From assembly GCA_964386395.1 (NCBI GenBank), contig CAYLRV010000001.1, positions 23,807-87,806 on the forward strand: a stretch of DNA of 64,000 bases. Direction: 5' to 3'. The notes under the pieces were generated by a model, which did no database searches, was not told where the DNA came from, and saw only the letters and a program-made list of their open reading frames with translations. Made by a program: the position numbers and the translations under genes. Shown here piece after piece: positions 32,840 to 40,095 of this stretch; the first letter of the stretch is position 1, and each line of letters opens with the position of its first letter. Origin of the DNA: an uncultured Chitinophaga sp. (GTDB lineage Bacteria > Bacteroidota > Bacteroidia > Chitinophagales > Chitinophagaceae).

Positions 32840-33020
32840 CTTTGATACAAGCATCCTAAGTGCTTTGCGTTTACCATTTCCGCCATTTCCCCTTTAGAGG
32901 GAAAGCGGGATTCGAACCCGCATATTGTCTGTTGCTCTGTCCACTAAGCTACCGGGCCCATTGCCCGGATGGGATTCGAACCCATGACCCACAGGTTGTG
33001 GTGATATATGTATCAGTGAA
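32840..33020 (-). ncRNA. Structured RNA with two tandem, circularly permuted tRNA-like modules (YrlA / Y-RNA-like)
   Basis: Minus-sense order is: GATAC ATAT [ATCACCACAA] CCTGT GGGTC; T-arm1 ATGGG-TTCGAAT-CCCAT (32969-32985); loop-closed acceptor hairpin CCGGGC-AATGG-GCCCGG; TA; D-arm1 GCTT-AGTGGACA-GAGC; A; ACAG ACA ATAT G; T-arm2 GCGGG-TTCGAAT-CCCGC (32905-32921); hairpin TTTCCCT-CTAAA-GGGGAAA; TG; D-arm2; anticodon-like arm AAGCA-CTTAGGA-TGCTT; GTATC. The outer segments GATAC/GTATC, ATAT/ATAT and CCTGT/ACAG are complementary. The ends of the RNA are uncertain. Confidence 0.5.
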
Positions 33021-34341: not shown

Positions 34342-34848
34342 TTACTGTACCACTTTATTTGCACAGCTGGAGCTGGCAAAAGCTTCCGGTTTAGCCTTGA
34401 AAGCAAAACCCCTGCCTGTCCGGCAGGCAGGCATTCCCATGATATAGCCCATAGCTTCCTTCAGGGCATCGTTACTTTTAAAGTTTGGGTTGGTGTTGAT
34501 GTCCGCATGCACTTCCATATCCACACTGTAGCGGCTGAATATGTTGCACAGTGCATAGGCTACTTCGATACTTTTCTGTACTTCCATCAACATCCGTTCT
34601 TTAATCGTCATACGCTGGCGGGTTGTTTCATTATGGATATACATGAAACCACCTTTCCCTTTCCGGATGAATACGATTACCGTGGCAAACTCAGTCACCC
34701 TGGCTTTCACCTGGCTATCGGTACCAATGCAGACTTTCAATTCATGTCCATTCTCTTTTTCCTGCATCAATACACGGCTTACCTCTTCCGCAATCGGGAT
34801 TTGAATCCGTTCACCGGTCAATTTTCTCCATTGTTGTTCCTGTTCCAT
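34342..34848 (-). CDS. YkuK/DUF458-family RNase-H-like protein
   Basis: 168 aa. KVCIGTDSQ, FATVIVFIRKGKGGF and KPEAFASS resemble the DUF458 family. Carries the 21-nt palindrome in frame at 34411-34431. The start codon lies 30 nt downstream (minus sense) of the last tRNA-like element. Confidence 0.55.
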   Translation of the reverse strand: MEQEQQWRKLTGERIQIPIAEEVSRVLMQEKENGHELKVCIGTDSQVKARVTEFATVIVFIRKGKGGFMYIHNETTRQRMTIKERMLMEVQKSIEVAYALCNIFSRYSVDMEVHADINTNPNFKSNDALKEAMGYIMGMPACRTGRGFAFKAKPEAFASSSCANKVVQ

Positions 34849-34877
34849 TGTTTTTGTTTTTCAATGTTGTGCTGCAT

Positions 34878-34943
34878 AAGTACAAGGATTCGATCCACCT
34901 CCGGTGGATTGTAAGCCATTATGCTACCGTTACATCATACTTG
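34878..34943 (-). ncRNA. Degenerate tRNA-like element A (66 nt)
   Basis: Acceptor-like pairing AAGTATG/TGTACTT plus A73. The interior has a CTTACAA loop-like segment, the hairpin TCCACC-GGA-GGTGGA, and TCGAATCC, but no canonical T-stem. Confidence 0.3.
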
Positions 34944-34950
34944 CTTTTGT

Positions 34951-35022
34951 GGACAAAACAGGATTCGAACCTGTACTGCTGCGGCTTCAACGCAGTGCTC
35001 TGCCATTGGAGCTATTTGTCCT
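34951..35022 (-). tRNA. tRNA-Phe(GAA)
   Basis: GGACAAA TA GCTC-CAATGGCA-GAGC A CTGCG-TTGAAGC-CGCAG CAGT ACAGG-TTCGAAT-CCTGT TTTGTCC A. A fully canonical cloverleaf with no encoded CCA. Confidence 0.9.
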
Positions 35023-35116
35023 TTTGTTTGTACCTGCACTGGCTGATCTTTTACACTTCATCACCGAATTGTGTTGCACAAACTCTGTCTTCCCGCCATA
35101 GCGGAATTATCATTGC

Positions 35117-35204
35117 GGAGAGTAAAGGATTCGAACCTTTGTACCGTTGTGAACGACAGCCCAAGCTTAGCAGGCTGGCACATTACCACTCTGTCAACCC
35201 TCCT
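35117..35204 (-). tRNA. tRNA-Ser(GCU), class II
   Basis: GGAGGGT TG ACA-GAGTGGTAA-TGT G CCAGC-CTGCTAA-GCTTG, long variable arm GTCGTT-CAC-AACGGT, AAAGG-TTCGAAT-CCTTT ACTCTCC G. There is one C.U mismatch in the anticodon stem. Confidence 0.75.
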
Positions 35205-35208
35205 TTGT

Positions 35209-35292
35209 GTGATTAATAAGATTCGAACTTATTCAGCCCGAAGGCAACGGTTTTACAGACCGTTACGACTCTCCGTCTTCGTCGTACTCACC
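35209..35292 (-). tRNA. tRNA-Tyr(GUA), class II
   Basis: GTGAGTA CG ACGA-AGACGGAGAG-TCGT A ACGGT-CTGTAAA-ACCGT, variable arm GCC-TTCG-GGC, ATAAG-TTCGAAT-CTTAT TAATCAC A. Has C8 instead of U8 and one G.A mismatch in the acceptor. Confidence 0.8.
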
Positions 35293-35303
35293 AAAATTTC
35301 AGC

Positions 35304-35380
35304 GGATGAAGAAAGGGTCGAACTTTCAACCATCGGCTTAACATCCGCCACTGGCGGACTGCCATTGAGCTATTCATCCA
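35304..35380 (-). ncRNA. tRNA-like element E (perfect acceptor and T-arm, non-canonical core)
   Basis: GGATGAA TA GCTC AATGGCAG [TCCGCC-AGT-GGCGGA] TGTTAAGCCGATGGTT GAAAG-TTCGACC-CTTTC TTCATCC G. It has no D-stem partner and no 5-bp stem with a 7-nt anticodon loop. ATGTTAA could be a GUU (Asn) loop only with a poor stem. Confidence 0.4.
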
Positions 35381-35384
35381 TTGT

Positions 35385-35458
35385 TGTCCCGGTGAGATTC
35401 GAACTCACAACCCCCCGGTTAAAAGCCGGGTACATCTTCCAGTTGAGCTACGAGACAT
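35385..35458 (-). tRNA. tRNA-Lys(UUU) with a weak D-stem
   Basis: TGTCTCG TA GCTC-AACTGGAA-GATG TA CCCGG-CTTTTAA-CCGGG GGGTT GTGAG-TTCGAAT-CTCAC CGGGACA A. U1-A72 pair. Only 2 of 4 D-stem pairs form. Confidence 0.65.
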
Positions 35459-35464
35459 TTTTGT

Positions 35465-35556
35465 TGCGGCTACCGGATTCACTGTCTGCCGACAGGCAGG
35501 GAACCAGTAACTCCTGCCATGTAAAAACAGCTTTCTCCCATTGAATTAAGCCGCAC
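35465..35556 (-). tRNA. tRNA-Val(UAC)-like with a 20-nt T-loop insertion
   Basis: TGCGGCT TA ATTC-AATGGGA-GAAA G CTGTT-TTTACAT-GGCAG GAGTT ACTGG-TTC[CCTGCCTGTCGGCAGACAGT]GAAT-CCGGT AGCCGCA A. The insertion occupies plus 35482-35501. Confidence 0.6.
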
Positions 35557-35573
35557 TGCTTCATAAGGTTTGT

Positions 35574-35645
35574 GATGGTTGACAGATTCGAACTGTCAGC
35601 CGCTATCGTATCAGGATAGTACTCTGCCATTGAGTTAAACCATCA
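35574..35645 (-). tRNA. tRNA-Ile(GAU)
   Basis: GATGGTT TA ACTC-AATGGCA-GAGT A CTATC-CTGATAC-GATAG CGGCT GACAG-TTCGAAT-CTGTC AACCATC A. Canonical cloverleaf. Confidence 0.9.
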
Positions 35646-35649
35646 TTGT

Positions 35650-35721
35650 TGCGGCTGCCAGATTCGAACCAGCATTTGAAGCTTATGAGACTTCTGAGTT
35701 AGCCATTACGCTAAACCGCAA
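35650..35721 (-). tRNA. tRNA with CAU anticodon (Met or Ile2; cannot be distinguished here)
   Basis: TGCGGTT TA GCGT-AATGGCTA-ACTC A GAAGT-CTCATAA-GCTTC AAAT GCTGG-TTCGAAT-CTGGC AGCCGCA A. One D-stem mismatch and a G.U-rich T-stem. Confidence 0.7.
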
Positions 35722-35730
35722 TTAATATGT

Positions 35731-35804
35731 AAGCCTGGTGAGAATCGAACTCACACTACATGGCTTCTAAGGCCATTGCCTCTCCCAATTGGGCTACAAG
35801 CTTA
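35731..35804 (-). tRNA. tRNA with Leu anticodon UAG on a class I (short variable loop) body
   Basis: AAGCTTG TA GCCC-AATTGGGAG-AGGC A ATGGC-CTTAGAA-GCCAT GTAGT GTGAG-TTCGATT-CTCAC CAGGCTT A. Confidence 0.7.
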
Positions 35805-35814
35805 TTTCATTTGT

Positions 35815-35887
35815 CGGCCAGACTGGATTCGAACCAGTAACCTTTTGCGTATAAGGCAACTGCTCACACCGTTGAGCTACAGGCCGC
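35815..35887 (-). tRNA. tRNA-Ile(UAU)
   Basis: CGGCCTG TA GCTC-AACGGTGT-GAGC A GTTGC-CTTATAC-GCAAA AGGTT ACTGG-TTCGAAT-CCAGT CTGGCCG A. One U.U mismatch in the acceptor. Confidence 0.8.
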
Positions 35888-35895
35888 TTGTTTGC

Positions 35896-35988
35896 TGACT
35901 CAGAAAGATTCCCTGCCAGTCGGCAGACAGGGAACTTTCATCTCCTCATTCGTAGTGAGGTGTTCTTCTCCATTGAACTATAAGTCAT
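35896..35988 (-). tRNA. tRNA-Arg(ACG) with a 20-nt T-loop insertion
   Basis: TGACTTA TA GTTC-AATGGAGAA-GAAC A CCTCA-CTACGAA-TGAGG AGAT GAAAG-TTC[CCTGTCTGCCGACTGGCAGG]GAAT-CTTTC TGAGTCA G. The insertion occupies plus 35913-35932. All four stems are otherwise good. Confidence 0.7.
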
Positions 35989-35993
35989 CATTG

Positions 35994-36110
35994 TACGGCT
36001 TCAGGAATTCCTGCCTGGCCGGCAGCCAGGGAACCTCTGCAACGATCACCTGCTATTTTCCTCTCAGAAAGAAAGGGAGGTGATTATGTTTCCATTACAA
36101 CAAGCCGTAT
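35994..36110 (-). tRNA. Aberrant tRNA-like gene (possible Gln-CUG) with a T-loop insertion and an elongated anticodon arm
   Basis: Acceptor ACGGCTT/AAGCCGT (or TACGGCT/AGCCGTA). Outer stem CACCT/AGGTG encloses CCC TTTCT-TTCTGAG-AGGAA AATAGC. T-loop TTC[CCTGGCTGCCGGCCAGGCAG]GAAT (insertion at plus 36012-36031). The T-stem is weak. Confidence 0.4.
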
Positions 36111-36113
36111 TGG

Positions 36114-36186
36114 GTGCACTGCGGGGCTCGAACCCTGTTCTCCCGATGCACAGTCGGGCACTTTACCAAATAAGCTACAGCCACCA
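36114..36186 (-). tRNA. tRNA-His(GUG) with encoded G-1
   Basis: G(-1) GTGGCTG TA GCTT-ATTTGGTA-AAGT G CCCGA-CTGTGCA-TCGGG AGAA CAGGG-TTCGAGC-CCC.. CAGTGCAC C. G-1 lies opposite C73. The 3' acceptor strand has TG where C is expected, giving a 1x2 internal loop. Confidence 0.7.
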
Positions 36187-36191
36187 TCTGT

Positions 36192-36283
36192 TACCCGGCT
36201 CAGACTCCCTGTCTGCTGACAGGCAGGGAACTGAGAATACCAGACTCAAATTCTGGTGTGTTGCCAATTACACCACCCGGTAA
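36192..36283 (-). tRNA. tRNA-Gln(UUG) with a 20-nt T-loop insertion
   Basis: TACCGGG TG GTGT-AATTGGCA-ACAC A CCAGA-ATTTGAG-TCTGG TATT CTCAG-TTC[CCTGCCTGTCAGCAGACAGG]GAGT-CTGAG CCGGGTA A. The insertion occupies plus 36209-36228. Confidence 0.7.
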
Positions 36284-36287
36284 TCGT

Positions 36288-36335
36288 GCAGCATGAGTGA
36301 ATCCCTGTCTGCAGACTGGAAGTGAACATGCAGCC
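36288..36335 (-). ncRNA. Acceptor-stem-like hairpin enclosing a short copy of the palindrome, flanked by AGTGAA direct repeats
   Basis: gcagcatg (36289-36296) pairs with catgcagc (36328-36335) with one mismatch. The interior is agtgaa-tccctgtctgcagactgg-aagtgaa. The 3' side is followed by CGAT, like the CAAT trailers of the array. Confidence 0.3.
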
Positions 36336-36455
36336 TTCCGCCGCGGCGGATATCCGGCCAATCGAAATGCTCCTATATTTTGCTCAAAGAACTTTTGGAA
36401 AAGCATCCCCGCTGCACCTGCGGGGAGCTTTGTCCCTCCTTCTGCACATAATCTG

Positions 36456-36593: not shown

Positions 36594-36712
36594 AGCTACC
36601 TCCTTTCTATTAACTGCATTTTTTATTTCCGCACTCTTCACCAATTGATTTCCTAACACTTCAACGACGGGAAATCTTTGTGGCAACCCACCTTCGCCAA
36701 AGCTTCGGTGGG

Positions 36713-36749
36713 TAAATAAAAAAACCCGGTCGTTTTTAGCGACCGGGTT
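36713..36749 (-). terminator. Rho-independent terminator (minus strand)
   Basis: aacccggtcg-tttttag-cgaccgggtt hairpin (36723-36749). In minus sense it is followed by TTTTTTTATTT. Confidence 0.75.
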
Positions 36750-37080
36750 TCCTGGCAAGCACAATTGTACTTACCTATGGATTGTCCGGTCGCCGATGGT
36801 GATCATTCTCATTACCTATGGGCACAATACTCCTGTTCGCTTGCGCAGAGCAATAGCATATGGCTGATAGTTGATCATTCATCGTTTGACTAAATCGTTT
36901 ATGTCGTAATAGTTTCAGCATTCTTTATTTTTCGGTTACAATAGATTCAAAACTTTTCCGATTACATAACTATTTTTCTTGTCCACTTACACTGAAGCTT
37001 GGGATTATCGCTTTCGCTTGCGCTGTGGGTAACACTTCTTCGCCGGCGGGTAACCCACCTTCGCTAAAGCTACGGTGGGT

Positions 37081-37109
37081 AAATAAAAAGCCCCGACGTT
37101 TGCCGGGGC
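37081..37109 (-). terminator. Rho-independent terminator after the Dabb gene (minus strand)
   Basis: gccccg-acgtttgc-cggggc hairpin. In minus sense it is followed by TTTTTATTT. Confidence 0.7.
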
Positions 37110-37331
37110 CTGTATTTCATTGAATTCGTTAGTATAACTTATCCTGGCAAAATACATGCCCCACAAACAGTGTAGTCTCCCTTGGGACTAAACCAATTCG
37201 CTGATTCAATATGTAATTTTATGCGTAGCATGTTTTTGTTTTGCAGTGCAAAGATGAATTTATTTTTTTGATGTTGCCAAATTTTTCTTGAAGAATTTTT
37301 AAAAATTATTTTTTTGCGCACAATTCCTATT

Positions 37332-39483: not shown

Positions 39484-40095
39484 TCAGAATAACTCCCCCT
39501 GCTTCGTTGCAACCGGCAGGTTCTGGAATTGGAATGTTGCTGCAATACGATATTTCATTTCCCCCACCGGCCGTTTGAGCAAAGTCATGCCATCAGCAAT
39601 AAACCGACCGGTAAAATGCTTTTGACTATACTCCAGCCAGCCCTTTTCATACTGCCAGGGCTTTAATTTCCGGGCAATGGTCAGGTGGGGCTCCATGATA
39701 AAATGCGGTTTATTATCCTCGTTCAGTTTCATCAGGCGCTGGCTTTCTGTACGGATGCTTTTTACCAGGCCTTGTACCGGTAATTTGCTGGTTACATTGA
39801 TATAAATAGTATGCGCCGGAAAACTGCCAAAATCTTTCAGCTCCACTTTAAATGGCGGGAAGCCCATGGCCACATTCCGCAGCCGGTTTAGTATCCGTTC
39901 TTCCAGCATGGCATGCTGCACAAAATTGACCAGCGTAATATGCGGCTTGCCCCATCTTGCATGATCCGATTTGTACGCAGTAGCAAAATCCTCCTTCACT
40001 TTCATTATCCTTTTCCATAGCTCTTCGTGCGGACTAAGCACCAATAAGTACTCATATTCCCGGTAGCCCGGGATCGTGTTGATAATACTTTCCAT
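39484..40095 (-). CDS. 2H-phosphoesterase superfamily protein (LigT / ThpR-like 2'-5' RNA ligase family)
   Basis: Two HxT motifs at the expected spacing: KPHITLVNF and EPHLTIARK. Confidence 0.7.
   Translation of the reverse strand: MESIINTIPGYREYEYLLVLSPHEELWKRIMKVKEDFATAYKSDHARWGKPHITLVNFVQHAMLEERILNRLRNVAMGFPPFKVELKDFGSFPAHTIYINVTSKLPVQGLVKSIRTESQRLMKLNEDNKPHFIMEPHLTIARKLKPWQYEKGWLEYSQKHFTGRFIADGMTLLKRPVGEMKYRIAATFQFQNLPVATKQGELF

Follow-up and report, generated by a model that had tools for sequence, protein, structure and literature searches.

A recurring palindromic cassette of 14-16 bases overwrites spare tRNA genes in the tRNA array of an uncultured Chitinophaga sp.

Why should the same short hairpin turn up several times within one run of tRNA genes? 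The question is raised by a tRNA array in an uncultured Chitinophaga sp. (GenBank assembly GCA_964386395.1, contig CAYLRV010000001.1), located within a stretch of 64,000 nucleotides (nt) that was analysed as a whole and is referred to below as the window. The array occupies positions 34875-36376 of the window on the minus strand, with about 18 slots in 1.5 kb; tRNA calls were made with ARAGORN and the Rfam tRNA model only. An earlier note on this DNA had listed four copies of a hairpin, TCCRCC-NNN-GGYGGA, scattered through the array and had interpreted them as deliberate remodelling of tRNAs. We compared the array with 160 related loci (1.25 Mb; designated by L numbers), which were anchored on the adjacent PF04308 gene and came in equal parts from reference genomes (80 loci, all from Chitinophagaceae or close relatives) and from metagenomes (80 loci). 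The TCCGCC hairpin is a real, recurring palindromic DNA cassette of 14-16 bases that overwrites parts of spare tRNA-Pro, tRNA-Asn, and tRNA-Trp genes.

In the 64 kb of the window, TCCRCCNNNGGYGGA has two exact matches, 34894-34908 and 35344-35358 (0.02 expected), and a third copy, TCCGCCGCGGCGGA, was detected at 36337-36350 when loops of 2-6 nt were allowed. All three lie within the 1.5 kb array, compared with a simulated mean of 0.027 and an analytic expectation of 0.036 for the window, and the cassette was not found in the other ~53 kb of the window, outside the operon of this genome. The copy at 35344-35358 (TCCGCC-AGT-GGCGGA), in element E, is a perfect 15-nt palindrome around a central G. 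The copy at 34894-34908 (TCCACC-GGA-GGTGGA), in element A, differs from TCCGCC/GGCGGA by one change per arm and forms a 7-bp pairing, ATCCACC/GGTGGAT, and the copy at 36337-36350 (TCCGCC-GC-GGCGGA), in the first array element, is a perfect 14-nt palindrome whose RNA has a 5-bp stem and a CGCG loop. Plain 6-bp hairpins are frequent (~100 in the window); the non-random part is the shared sequence, not the presence of hairpins. The copies thus form a true sequence family, as the earlier note had proposed (three versus 0.03 expected in the window), although its coordinates were each one base too high and only three of its four copies hold up, two exact and one with a 2-nt loop. The remaining site, at 35090-35106, falls outside the TCCGCC pattern and is assigned to a sister class below.

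Because the TCCGCC pattern was fitted to the window, the fair test is provided by independent loci. In the 160 loci, 26 copies of TCCGCC-N2-4-GGCGGA were found, whereas 0.46 were expected, and at least 12 of the 26 lie inside tRNA-derived elements of homologous arrays. In about 100 of the 160 loci, a homologous array stands directly upstream of PF04308, and its slots can be recognised by their order, which from tRNA-Pro onwards reads Pro, Glu, Asp, (Gly), Gln, His, a conserved non-tRNA slot, Arg(acg), Ile(tat), (Leu), Met, Ile(gat), Val, Lys, Asn, Tyr, Ser(tga), Ser(gct), (Cys), Phe, and Trp. When the orthologous arrays were aligned, as the earlier note had suggested, the same cassette was found at the same junctions in relatives. 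The note had also named what would speak against it, a motif at chance frequency in the rest of the genome and without conservation in relatives; this is not the case, because the cassette was found again in the relatives. Its view that the hairpins are not random decay, by point mutation, is likewise upheld.

Within each tRNA slot, the same 5-16 native bases are replaced at the same junction in genomes that are not closest relatives. In the Pro slot, the cassette is present in L094 (a 14-mer identical to that of the window), L112 (AGCT loop), L123 (AACT loop), and L007 (a variant), with the unit placed between CTCCG and AGAGG; the window copy lacks the CTCCG and AG that flank the cassette elsewhere. 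In the Asn slot, the window, L112, L104 (TCCGCTTGGAGCGGA), and L009 (TCCCGCC-ATT-GGCGGGA) carry it after GGCAG(AG), and in the window, L104, and L112 it stands between GGCAG and TGTTA. The Lys slot is occupied between CTTTTA and TGTGAG in L009, L027 (AGTT), and L095 (AACT, in reverse complement), and the Asp slot in L095 and L103. Carriers in the Trp slot are the window and L017, in which 47 nt of tRNA-Trp have been replaced by 23 nt that contain the cassette, as judged against the close relative L019. Acceptor pairs are 7/7 in 12 of the 14 carriers inspected.

The cassette is not confined to these five slots. It is present in the variable arm of class II tRNAs in L003 and L019, lies in intergenic DNA after PF04308 in L087 and L112, constitutes the closed acceptor-like stem (TCCGCC…GGCGGA) of a YrlA-like element in L094, L113, and L114, and is found in the RtcB coding sequence of L002, where a 16-mer in a variable linker is translated in frame as …SPPTGGG…. 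The contexts are therefore non-homologous: five tRNA slots (Pro, Asn, Lys, Asp, and Trp), the RtcB linker, and intergenic DNA. Identical 16-mers are shared by the Lys genes of L009, L027, and L095, the Pro gene of L123, and the RtcB gene of L002. A scan of viral contigs for the 16-mer gave more than 120 matches, consistent with chance for a collection of that size. In a separate observation, the variable arm of the L003 Tyr gene was seen to be a TCCGCCGCGGCGGA unit. Another concerns the Asn-slot gene of L104 (2069-2146), in which the TCCGCTTGGAGCGGA loop, CUUGGAG, reads like the anticodon loop of a tRNA-Pro(UGG); the ARAGORN call for this gene is 'Pro(tgg)', the remnant of the old Asn anticodon forms a 15-nt variable region, and the gene may be a chimeric tRNA with a switched anticodon.

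Element E (35303-35379, minus strand) is the ortholog of the array tRNA-Asn(GUU) and carries the cassette, as shown by its Rfam score, by synteny, and by an alignment with 34 orthologous tRNA-Asn genes. It scored 33.2 bits against RF00005, above the gathering threshold of 29, whereas ARAGORN made no call at its default setting and called 'Thr(agt)' at -ps80. The 7-bp acceptor stem (GGATGAA/TTCATCC) and the T arm (GAAAG-TTCGACC-CTTTC) are intact, confirming what the earlier note had said of them. In the alignment, G22 of the D stem is followed by an inserted TCCGCC; the hairpin's right arm overlaps the original 5' strand of the anticodon stem (GGCGG), and the old anticodon loop, TGTTAA (GUU), persists 3' of the hairpin at 6 nt, one base short. 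Neither a canonical D arm nor a 5-bp anticodon stem with a 7-nt loop is left: the 3' strand of the D stem is interrupted by 6 nt and the old stem is reduced to 3 bp. In the relaxed ARAGORN fold, the hairpin takes the position of the anticodon arm, with the stem GUCCG/CGGAU and the loop CCAGUGG, which has C instead of the canonical U at position 33 and whose CC/GG ends zip to a triloop, unlike a normal loop with its unpaired positions 32 and 38; L104 was folded likewise. The proposal that the hairpin replaces the anticodon arm of E is accordingly correct for the structure, in this relaxed fold, but not for the history, in which the left arm was inserted and the old loop was kept.

Folding of element E gave a minimum free energy of -29 kcal/mol, with z = -3.4 relative to shuffled sequence. 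The predicted fold consists of the acceptor stem, a long central arm in which the hairpin is extended by UGGCA/UGUUA and GCU/AGC, and the T arm. Excision from E or from element A (81 variants each) recovered no tRNA detectable by ARAGORN. Neither of the two is permuted or matches the YrlA model RF02553, and the sole YrlA match inside the array scored 19 bits.

Element A (34875-34944, minus strand) is a relic of tRNA-Trp(CCA), aligned with ten Trp genes and L001. It scored 23.6 bits with the Rfam tRNA model, below the gathering threshold; the anticodon has changed from CCA to ACA, the 5' strand of the T stem (CAAGG) has been replaced, and the acceptor contains C·A and G·U pairs. The replacement covers 13 nt, comprising the end of the 3' strand of the anticodon stem, the variable loop, and the 5' strand of the T stem, in place of which stand 12 nt, ACCGGAGGTGGA. 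The first array element (36287-36376, minus strand) consists of the 5' part of a tRNA-Pro(TGG) fused to the 3' end of a tRNA-Gly(TCC), as seen by comparison with L005, L006, and L008 (Pro) and L013 (Gly), and its acceptor strands are unpaired because of this fusion. Here the native arm, CCCCG-TTTGGAT-CGGGG or CTCCG-CCTGGAA-CGGAG, has given way to TCCGC-CGCG-GCGGA; read from these alignments, the clean replacement of an anticodon arm is at this site and not at E. The Pro/Gly relic also has a decayed cassette of another type (CCTG, see below) in its T loop. Neither relic folds much like E in its z score (-0.9 for element A and -0.4 for the Pro/Gly relic). A contiguous acceptor and T arm, such as a minihelix would have, is present in E and absent from A and the Pro/Gly relic, and none of the three encodes CCA.

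The TCCGCC class is one of several related palindromes of 14-21 nt in these arrays. Its sister classes include TCCCGAT-AGCT-ATCGGGA, TCCCGAA-AGCT-TTCGGGA, TCCCGCA-GAAT-TGCGGGA, and TCCCGCC-nnn-GGCGGGA, together with the CCTG class, CCTGCCTG-CCGG-CAGGCAGG, which is the 'first family' of hairpins in the window. Cassettes of the types TCC(C)G…C(G)GGA and CCTGCCTG…CAGGCAGG are found mostly in T and D loops, and in many of them the palindrome extends across the centre (GC, AGCT, AATT, CCGG, or a single central base). The same variant is often repeated within one genome (twice each in L040, L046, and L045, three times in L020). GC-rich perfect hairpins are three times denser in the array zones than in the flanks, and those of the TCCCG type 17 times. 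In 83 trials, excision of a single cassette restored the tRNA expected from synteny 27 times, with junctions only in T loops (12, at TTC/GA) or D loops (11).

The order of the array in the window is Pro/Gly relic, Gln, His, X, Arg, Ile(tat), Leu(tag), Met, Ile(gat), Val, Lys, Asn (E), Tyr, Ser(gct), a conserved 65-nt element, Phe, and Trp (A), with T-loop cassettes in Gln, X, Arg, and Val. These hairpins, CCTGYCTG…CAGRCAGG, are 20-21 nt long and stand exactly between the TTC and GA of T loops. In tRNA-Gln the cassette, CCTGCCTG…CAGRCAGG, is at 36208-36227, and its excision restores a tRNA-Gln(ttg). Others of the CCTG type are located at 36010-36030, in the conserved element X between His and Arg, and, with mismatches, at 35912-35931 in tRNA-Arg(ACG) and at 35481-35500 in tRNA-Val(TAC). 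A perfect palindrome, CCTGCCTGCCGGCAGGCAGG, was noticed in relatives, in the T loops of L016 Asn, L001 Phe, and L056 Cys and in the D loop of L003 Arg.

The site at 35090-35106 lies in spacer DNA and reads on the array strand TTCCGCTATGGCGGGAA, or TTCCGC-TATG-GCGGGAA, with a 6-bp stem, one bulged G, and a 4-nt loop. By its resemblance to L027 2997 (TCCCGCTAAGGCGGGA) and L003 2715, it is best read as a decayed copy of the TCCCGC-nnnn-GCGGGA class. It falls in ~30 extra nt 5' of the conserved ~65-nt non-tRNA element and not in a tRNA remnant. The 94-nt gap here was considered as a tRNA-Cys relic, but alignment to five Cys genes was unconvincing; it consists of the conserved element and the 30 extra nt. 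As judged by inspection, this site and the decayed CCTG copies of the window contain C·A and T·T mismatches or a bulge, with no bias to G·U.

Cassettes also occur in coding sequence. A 21-nt unit of the CCTG type at 34411-34431 is in frame in the PF04308 gene and adds seven residues, PACRTGR, between GM and GF; this insert is restricted to the window and the non-sister locus L009, and is absent from L034, the sister of L009 with 94% identity. In L119, a different 9-aa insert was observed at the same site, and L012 has a unit near the N-terminus. The variable RtcB linker between the N-terminal and catalytic parts (approximately residues 88-92 of the window RtcB) has been hit repeatedly and contains in-frame cassettes in L002 (8828), L016 (9574), and L028, the inserts being VSPPTGGGDLEG, APPSDPDFN, and VSPLGGDLEG, respectively. 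A palindrome at 40058-40073 in the LigT-like gene was rejected as a cassette; it encodes a conserved IPGYRE and is not an insertion.

The age of the carriers was estimated from the PF04308 genes, which are 43-61% identical between carriers at 4-fold degenerate sites, indicating that the carrier genomes are old relatives. No locus has an anchor protein more than 88% identical to that of the window in amino acids, so that a short-timescale comparison is impossible for E and A in this genome. In a tree of this one protein (168 aa), the carriers of each slot are scattered, and each carrier is more closely related to some locus with an intact gene in that slot than to any other carrier, the only exception being the L112/L123 pair in the Pro slot. 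Very close pairs differ in the presence or absence of a cassette (L017 versus L019 and L044 versus L041); L044, from Niastella populi, bears a cassette of a sister class. L009 and L112 have linked variants in common that are absent from L034, implying that the arrays are mosaic. From these comparisons it appears that either one junction underwent the same replacement several times or lineages exchanged patches that contain the cassette. Conservation of the E type over long times, for which inspection gave 86% identity between E and L112 versus 49% at 4-fold sites, was dropped as a proof of function, because the carriers are polyphyletic and the same degree of conservation is seen in intact Asn genes.

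Unrelated sites, both orientations, palindromy through the centre, replacement instead of pure insertion, in-frame survival in coding sequence, and decayed copies suggest copying at the level of DNA. The explanation that we favour, and to which we give about an even chance, is that the cassette is a copy-and-paste DNA palindrome, spread by microhomology-seeded short-patch templated repair, and that it leaves accessory tRNA genes as relics unable to decode. Another copy would serve as donor, through gene conversion or template switching, and repair would be seeded by the microhomology that the junctions show between the cassette ends (TCCG…CGGA and TC…GA) and native sequence, namely the anticodon stems of Pro (CTCCGCC…CGGAG), Asn (GGCGG), and Lys (TCCGG…CCGGA) and the T-loop centre (TTC followed by GAA). 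Copies would survive only where the host tolerates them, that is, in redundant array tRNAs, protein linkers, and spacers. In the window, the outcome would be Pro, Asn (E), and Trp (A) elements without a usable anticodon arm, and hence without decoding, and the 35090 copy would be an old cassette decaying in a spacer. Element E would have kept its acceptor and T-arm half only because the cassette missed it.

Several points weigh against this explanation. The mechanism is inferred from the junctions. A purely selfish or neutral element would be expected genome-wide, and the restriction of the cassette to the operon, as judged from ~53 kb outside it in this genome, is no more than suggestive. The clean insertions of the sister classes are confined to T and D loops and never affect anticodon loops, carriers nearly always keep perfect acceptor stems, and the T-loop alleles of the Lys gene differ by compensatory changes in the acceptor, anticodon, and T stems, which together look like continued selection on these RNAs. 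The TCCGCC stem sequence is itself conserved, including in the YrlA-like stems, as would suit a protein-recognition element. Moreover, repeated gain is inseparable from horizontal spread of whole alleles, given a phylogeny of one 168-aa protein and mosaic arrays.

These points bear on a second explanation, which we consider rather unlikely though by no means negligible: that the cassette is a functional RNA tag, a protein-recognition hairpin grafted repeatedly onto tRNAs to give non-decoding tRNA-like RNAs with an intact acceptor and T-arm half. Such RNAs could act, beside the YrlA-like RNA, as ligands, decoys, or sponges for the PF04308 nuclease-like protein, the AAA ATPase, RtcB, or tRNA-targeting toxins. 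The operon is conserved and holds a YrlA-like tRNA mimic, whose closed acceptor stem is made of the cassette in three relatives; acceptor pairing is retained in most carriers together with the stem sequence; every TCCGCC-family event disables the anticodon arm and leaves the acceptor and T arms intact; element E folds better than shuffled sequence; and a sponge role has been proposed for the tRNAs of L-arrays (PMC8421152). However, the cassette is translated in RtcB, is present in spacers, occurs in both orientations at one slot, and is palindromic through its loop, and the carriers are not monophyletic, so that long-term conservation is unsupported. The deliberate remodelling towards minihelix-like ligands envisaged in the earlier note is not supported, in view of the RtcB and intergenic copies, the two orientations at one slot, and the palindromy through the loop, which has no purpose in RNA. 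Two of the three elements also lack the minihelix half, element A having lost the 5' strand of the T stem and two acceptor pairs and the upstream element having no acceptor pairing.

A broader version of an RNA role, which strikes us as improbable, would make all cassettes RNA-level modules of a bacterial tRNA-remodelling system. Units in T and D loops would stick out from the elbow of the tRNA and be excised and religated by RtcB or serve as handles, TCCGCC would cap the anticodon arm and create mimics for the PF04308, AAA, SPFH, and RtcB proteins or a toxin sponge, and repeated acquisition would reflect adaptive parallelism.

Intron-like behaviour of the cassettes, with cutting from RNA by an endonuclease and joining of the exons by the neighbouring RtcB, would amount to bacterial tRNA splicing and is quite unlikely. 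RtcB and a 2H phosphoesterase are encoded in the same conserved operon, and the precise excisions that restored a tRNA in the sister classes involve T and D loops only and yield intact cloverleaves; splicing of these units is conceivable. For the TCCGCC class it is unlikely, because excision restores no tRNA, native bases having been replaced (in the E, A, Pro, Lys, and Asp slots), because there is no bulge-helix-bulge, and because coding copies keep the frame as if translated and not spliced. The stems are uninterrupted, the T-loop cassettes continue the TTC/GAA helix without staggered bulges, and no EndA-like domain was found among the operon open reading frames with Pfam and NCBIfam.

We regard as more doubtful still that the palindromes of 14-16 bp are regulatory sites in DNA, either operators for a dimeric repressor that silences the array or pause and terminator hairpins. 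Their dyad symmetry is perfect and includes the centre, a family-like hairpin with a T-run behind it is located ahead of the array (36406-36426), and L-arrays are repressed via promoter repeats (PMC8421152); yet the copies lie inside tRNA genes, which they destroy, at positions that vary between genomes, the copies within the array have no T-run, and others are in coding linkers. Coincidence, that is, GC-rich hairpins produced by ordinary decay of tRNA pseudogenes whose stems are already GGCGG- or CCGGA-like, is scarcely credible in view of the excess over expectation, the identical 16-mers in non-homologous contexts, and the identical junctions across genomes, even though 6-bp hairpins are common in the window and native bases are re-used (GGCGG in Asn and TCC in Trp).

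A full-text literature search retrieved no description of these cassettes. To our knowledge, the usual view has been that short insertions are absent from bacterial tRNA genes and that accessory arrays are no more than spare sets. Rickettsia palindromic elements measure ~100-150 bp, occur genome-wide, in frame in coding genes and also in RNA genes, and are tolerated in surface and linker regions. The cassettes are likewise palindromic, in frame in coding genes, and present in RNA genes; in contrast, they measure 14-21 nt, replace native bases, re-use junctions, and have so far been found in one operon only. REP and REPIN sequences, mobilised by RAYT, are short, GC-rich, imperfect palindromes that are extragenic, have a 5' GTAG-type tetranucleotide, and reach hundreds of copies. 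They share with the cassettes a short GC-rich palindrome with a family-specific sequence within a genome, whereas the cassettes lie inside tRNA genes and coding sequence, have no constant flank, and are absent from the rest of the window. No HUH or RAYT domain was detected in the operon open reading frames scanned.

Non-canonical tRNA introns of Thermoproteales are 12-30 nt long, interrupt many tRNA positions including D and T loops, are ligated by RtcB, and have been proposed to transpose between tRNA genes. The resemblance lies in short related insertions in tRNA genes and in the sister cassettes that restore tRNAs on excision; the differences are the missing bulge-helix-bulge, the replacement of native bases by TCCGCC, the coding copies, the bacterial host, and the operon, in which no EndA homolog was seen. 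Template switching at quasi-palindromes usually perfects a local palindrome, and GC-cluster and hairpin elements are known in fungal mitochondria. In both, as here, perfect short palindromes arise in DNA near inverted repeats, including in RNA genes, with microhomology at the junctions, but in the arrays one and the same foreign sequence recurs at sites that are unrelated, across different genera.

The array itself resembles the L-arrays, which are co-regulated with rtcB, include some pseudogenes, and have been assigned a proposed sponge role (PMC8421152). It is a co-oriented run of accessory tRNA genes with short spacers, some pseudogenes, an order common to dozens of loci, and RNA-processing neighbours, with RtcB and a LigT-like protein encoded on its flanks. 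In contrast, the word 'hairpin' is absent from the report on L-arrays (PMC8421152), as is any description of inserted cassettes, whereas here palindromic cassettes occupy a large share of the slots and the array forms part of a fixed LigT…RtcB order with a YrlA-like RNA. YrlA (RF02553; PMC4201824) is comparable as a tRNA-derived, non-decoding RNA of an RtcB-linked operon that in some relatives contains the TCCGCC…GGCGGA stem, but its permuted order is missing from E and A, which also fail to match its model.

Across the family, array tRNA genes have been overwritten repeatedly at fixed positions by a handful of palindromes of 14-21 nt. If the process is mutational, it would be an unusually clean natural case of sequence-specific, microhomology-guided short-patch conversion and would define a new class of ultra-small palindromic elements; it would also be a source of false negatives and odd calls by tRNA finders, for instance an Asn gene taken for 'Pro(tgg)'. 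If the hairpin RNAs are used, tRNA-like decoys, or even protein-dependent tRNA splicing, would exist in bacteria beside RtcB, and the role of RtcB operons, long unclear, would become directly testable.

The genes around the array are arranged on the same strand in the order 2H/LigT-like phosphoesterase, PA0069-family radical SAM protein, Dabb-domain protein, array, PF04308 RNase H-like protein, AAA ATPase, SPFH protein, and RtcB. This order is widely conserved, and loci that have no array also lack adjacent AAA, SPFH, and RtcB genes. The PF04308 gene (34342-34848, minus strand) is directly downstream of the array; an exact-protein lookup returned no record for it, and searches of the PDB and NCBIfam gave nothing useful on its function. 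A phage origin of the array was rejected: megablast of 5 kb against 50,697 phage records gave no match, and the context is that of a Chitinophagaceae chromosome. No Ro60/TROVE gene was found among the operon open reading frames scanned.

Within the array, ARAGORN called seven genes, namely, Phe, Ser(gct), Lys, Ile(gat), Met, Leu(tag), and Ile(tat). The Rfam tRNA model added a Tyr-like gene at 35208-35291, a His-like gene at 36113-36184, element E, and matches below threshold including element A. The Tyr-like gene (GUA, minus strand) has a long variable arm and a mismatch in the acceptor, scored 38 bits with Rfam, and was not called by ARAGORN.

A partial match to YrlA was located at 32927-32993 on the minus strand, 2.3 kb downstream of the array and between the AAA and SPFH genes. 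It covers model positions 23-88 of RF02553 with 39.2 bits (E = 3.4e-6; below the gathering threshold of 69) and has a permuted tRNA-like module composed of a T arm, a closed acceptor-like stem (CCGGGC-AATGG-GCCCGG), and a D arm; a second T arm is present at 32905-32951.

Two slots are occupied by conserved elements of other kinds. The ~65-nt non-tRNA element (35022-35085, minus strand), between tRNA-Ser(GCU) and tRNA-Phe, recurs in many related arrays with the consensus TTGTTTG…GAATTCGATGATGAGGAAA…ATCAGTCAAT…CAAACAA, an outer stem GTTTG/CAAAC, and an internal GATGATGA motif that recalls a C box or kink-turn. The element is interrupted by a CCTG cassette in L005 and L012. The His-Arg slot (35986-36112, minus strand), a gap of ~100 nt in most related arrays, holds a tRNA-like element with the acceptor ACGGCTT/AAGCCGT, a D arm, a T loop with its cassette, and, where the anticodon arm would be expected, a long arm, TCACCT…CCTCCCTTTCTTTCTGAGAGG…AGGTGA.

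Upstream, a terminator-like hairpin, TCCCCGCAG-GTG-CAGCGGGGA (36406-36426, minus strand), followed by a T-run, stands ahead of the array. It is followed at 36376-36405 (minus strand) by a conserved AAGTTCTTTGAG…AAAATATAG motif that leads without a break into the first gene of the array. L005, L006, and L096 are arranged in the same way, and the arrangement looks like the array's own Bacteroidetes-type promoter. Farther upstream, a composite repeat is present in two copies (36686-36760 and 37046-37111), each consisting of ACCCACCTTCGCyAAAGCTwCGGTGGGTAAATAAAAA followed by a GC-rich terminator hairpin.

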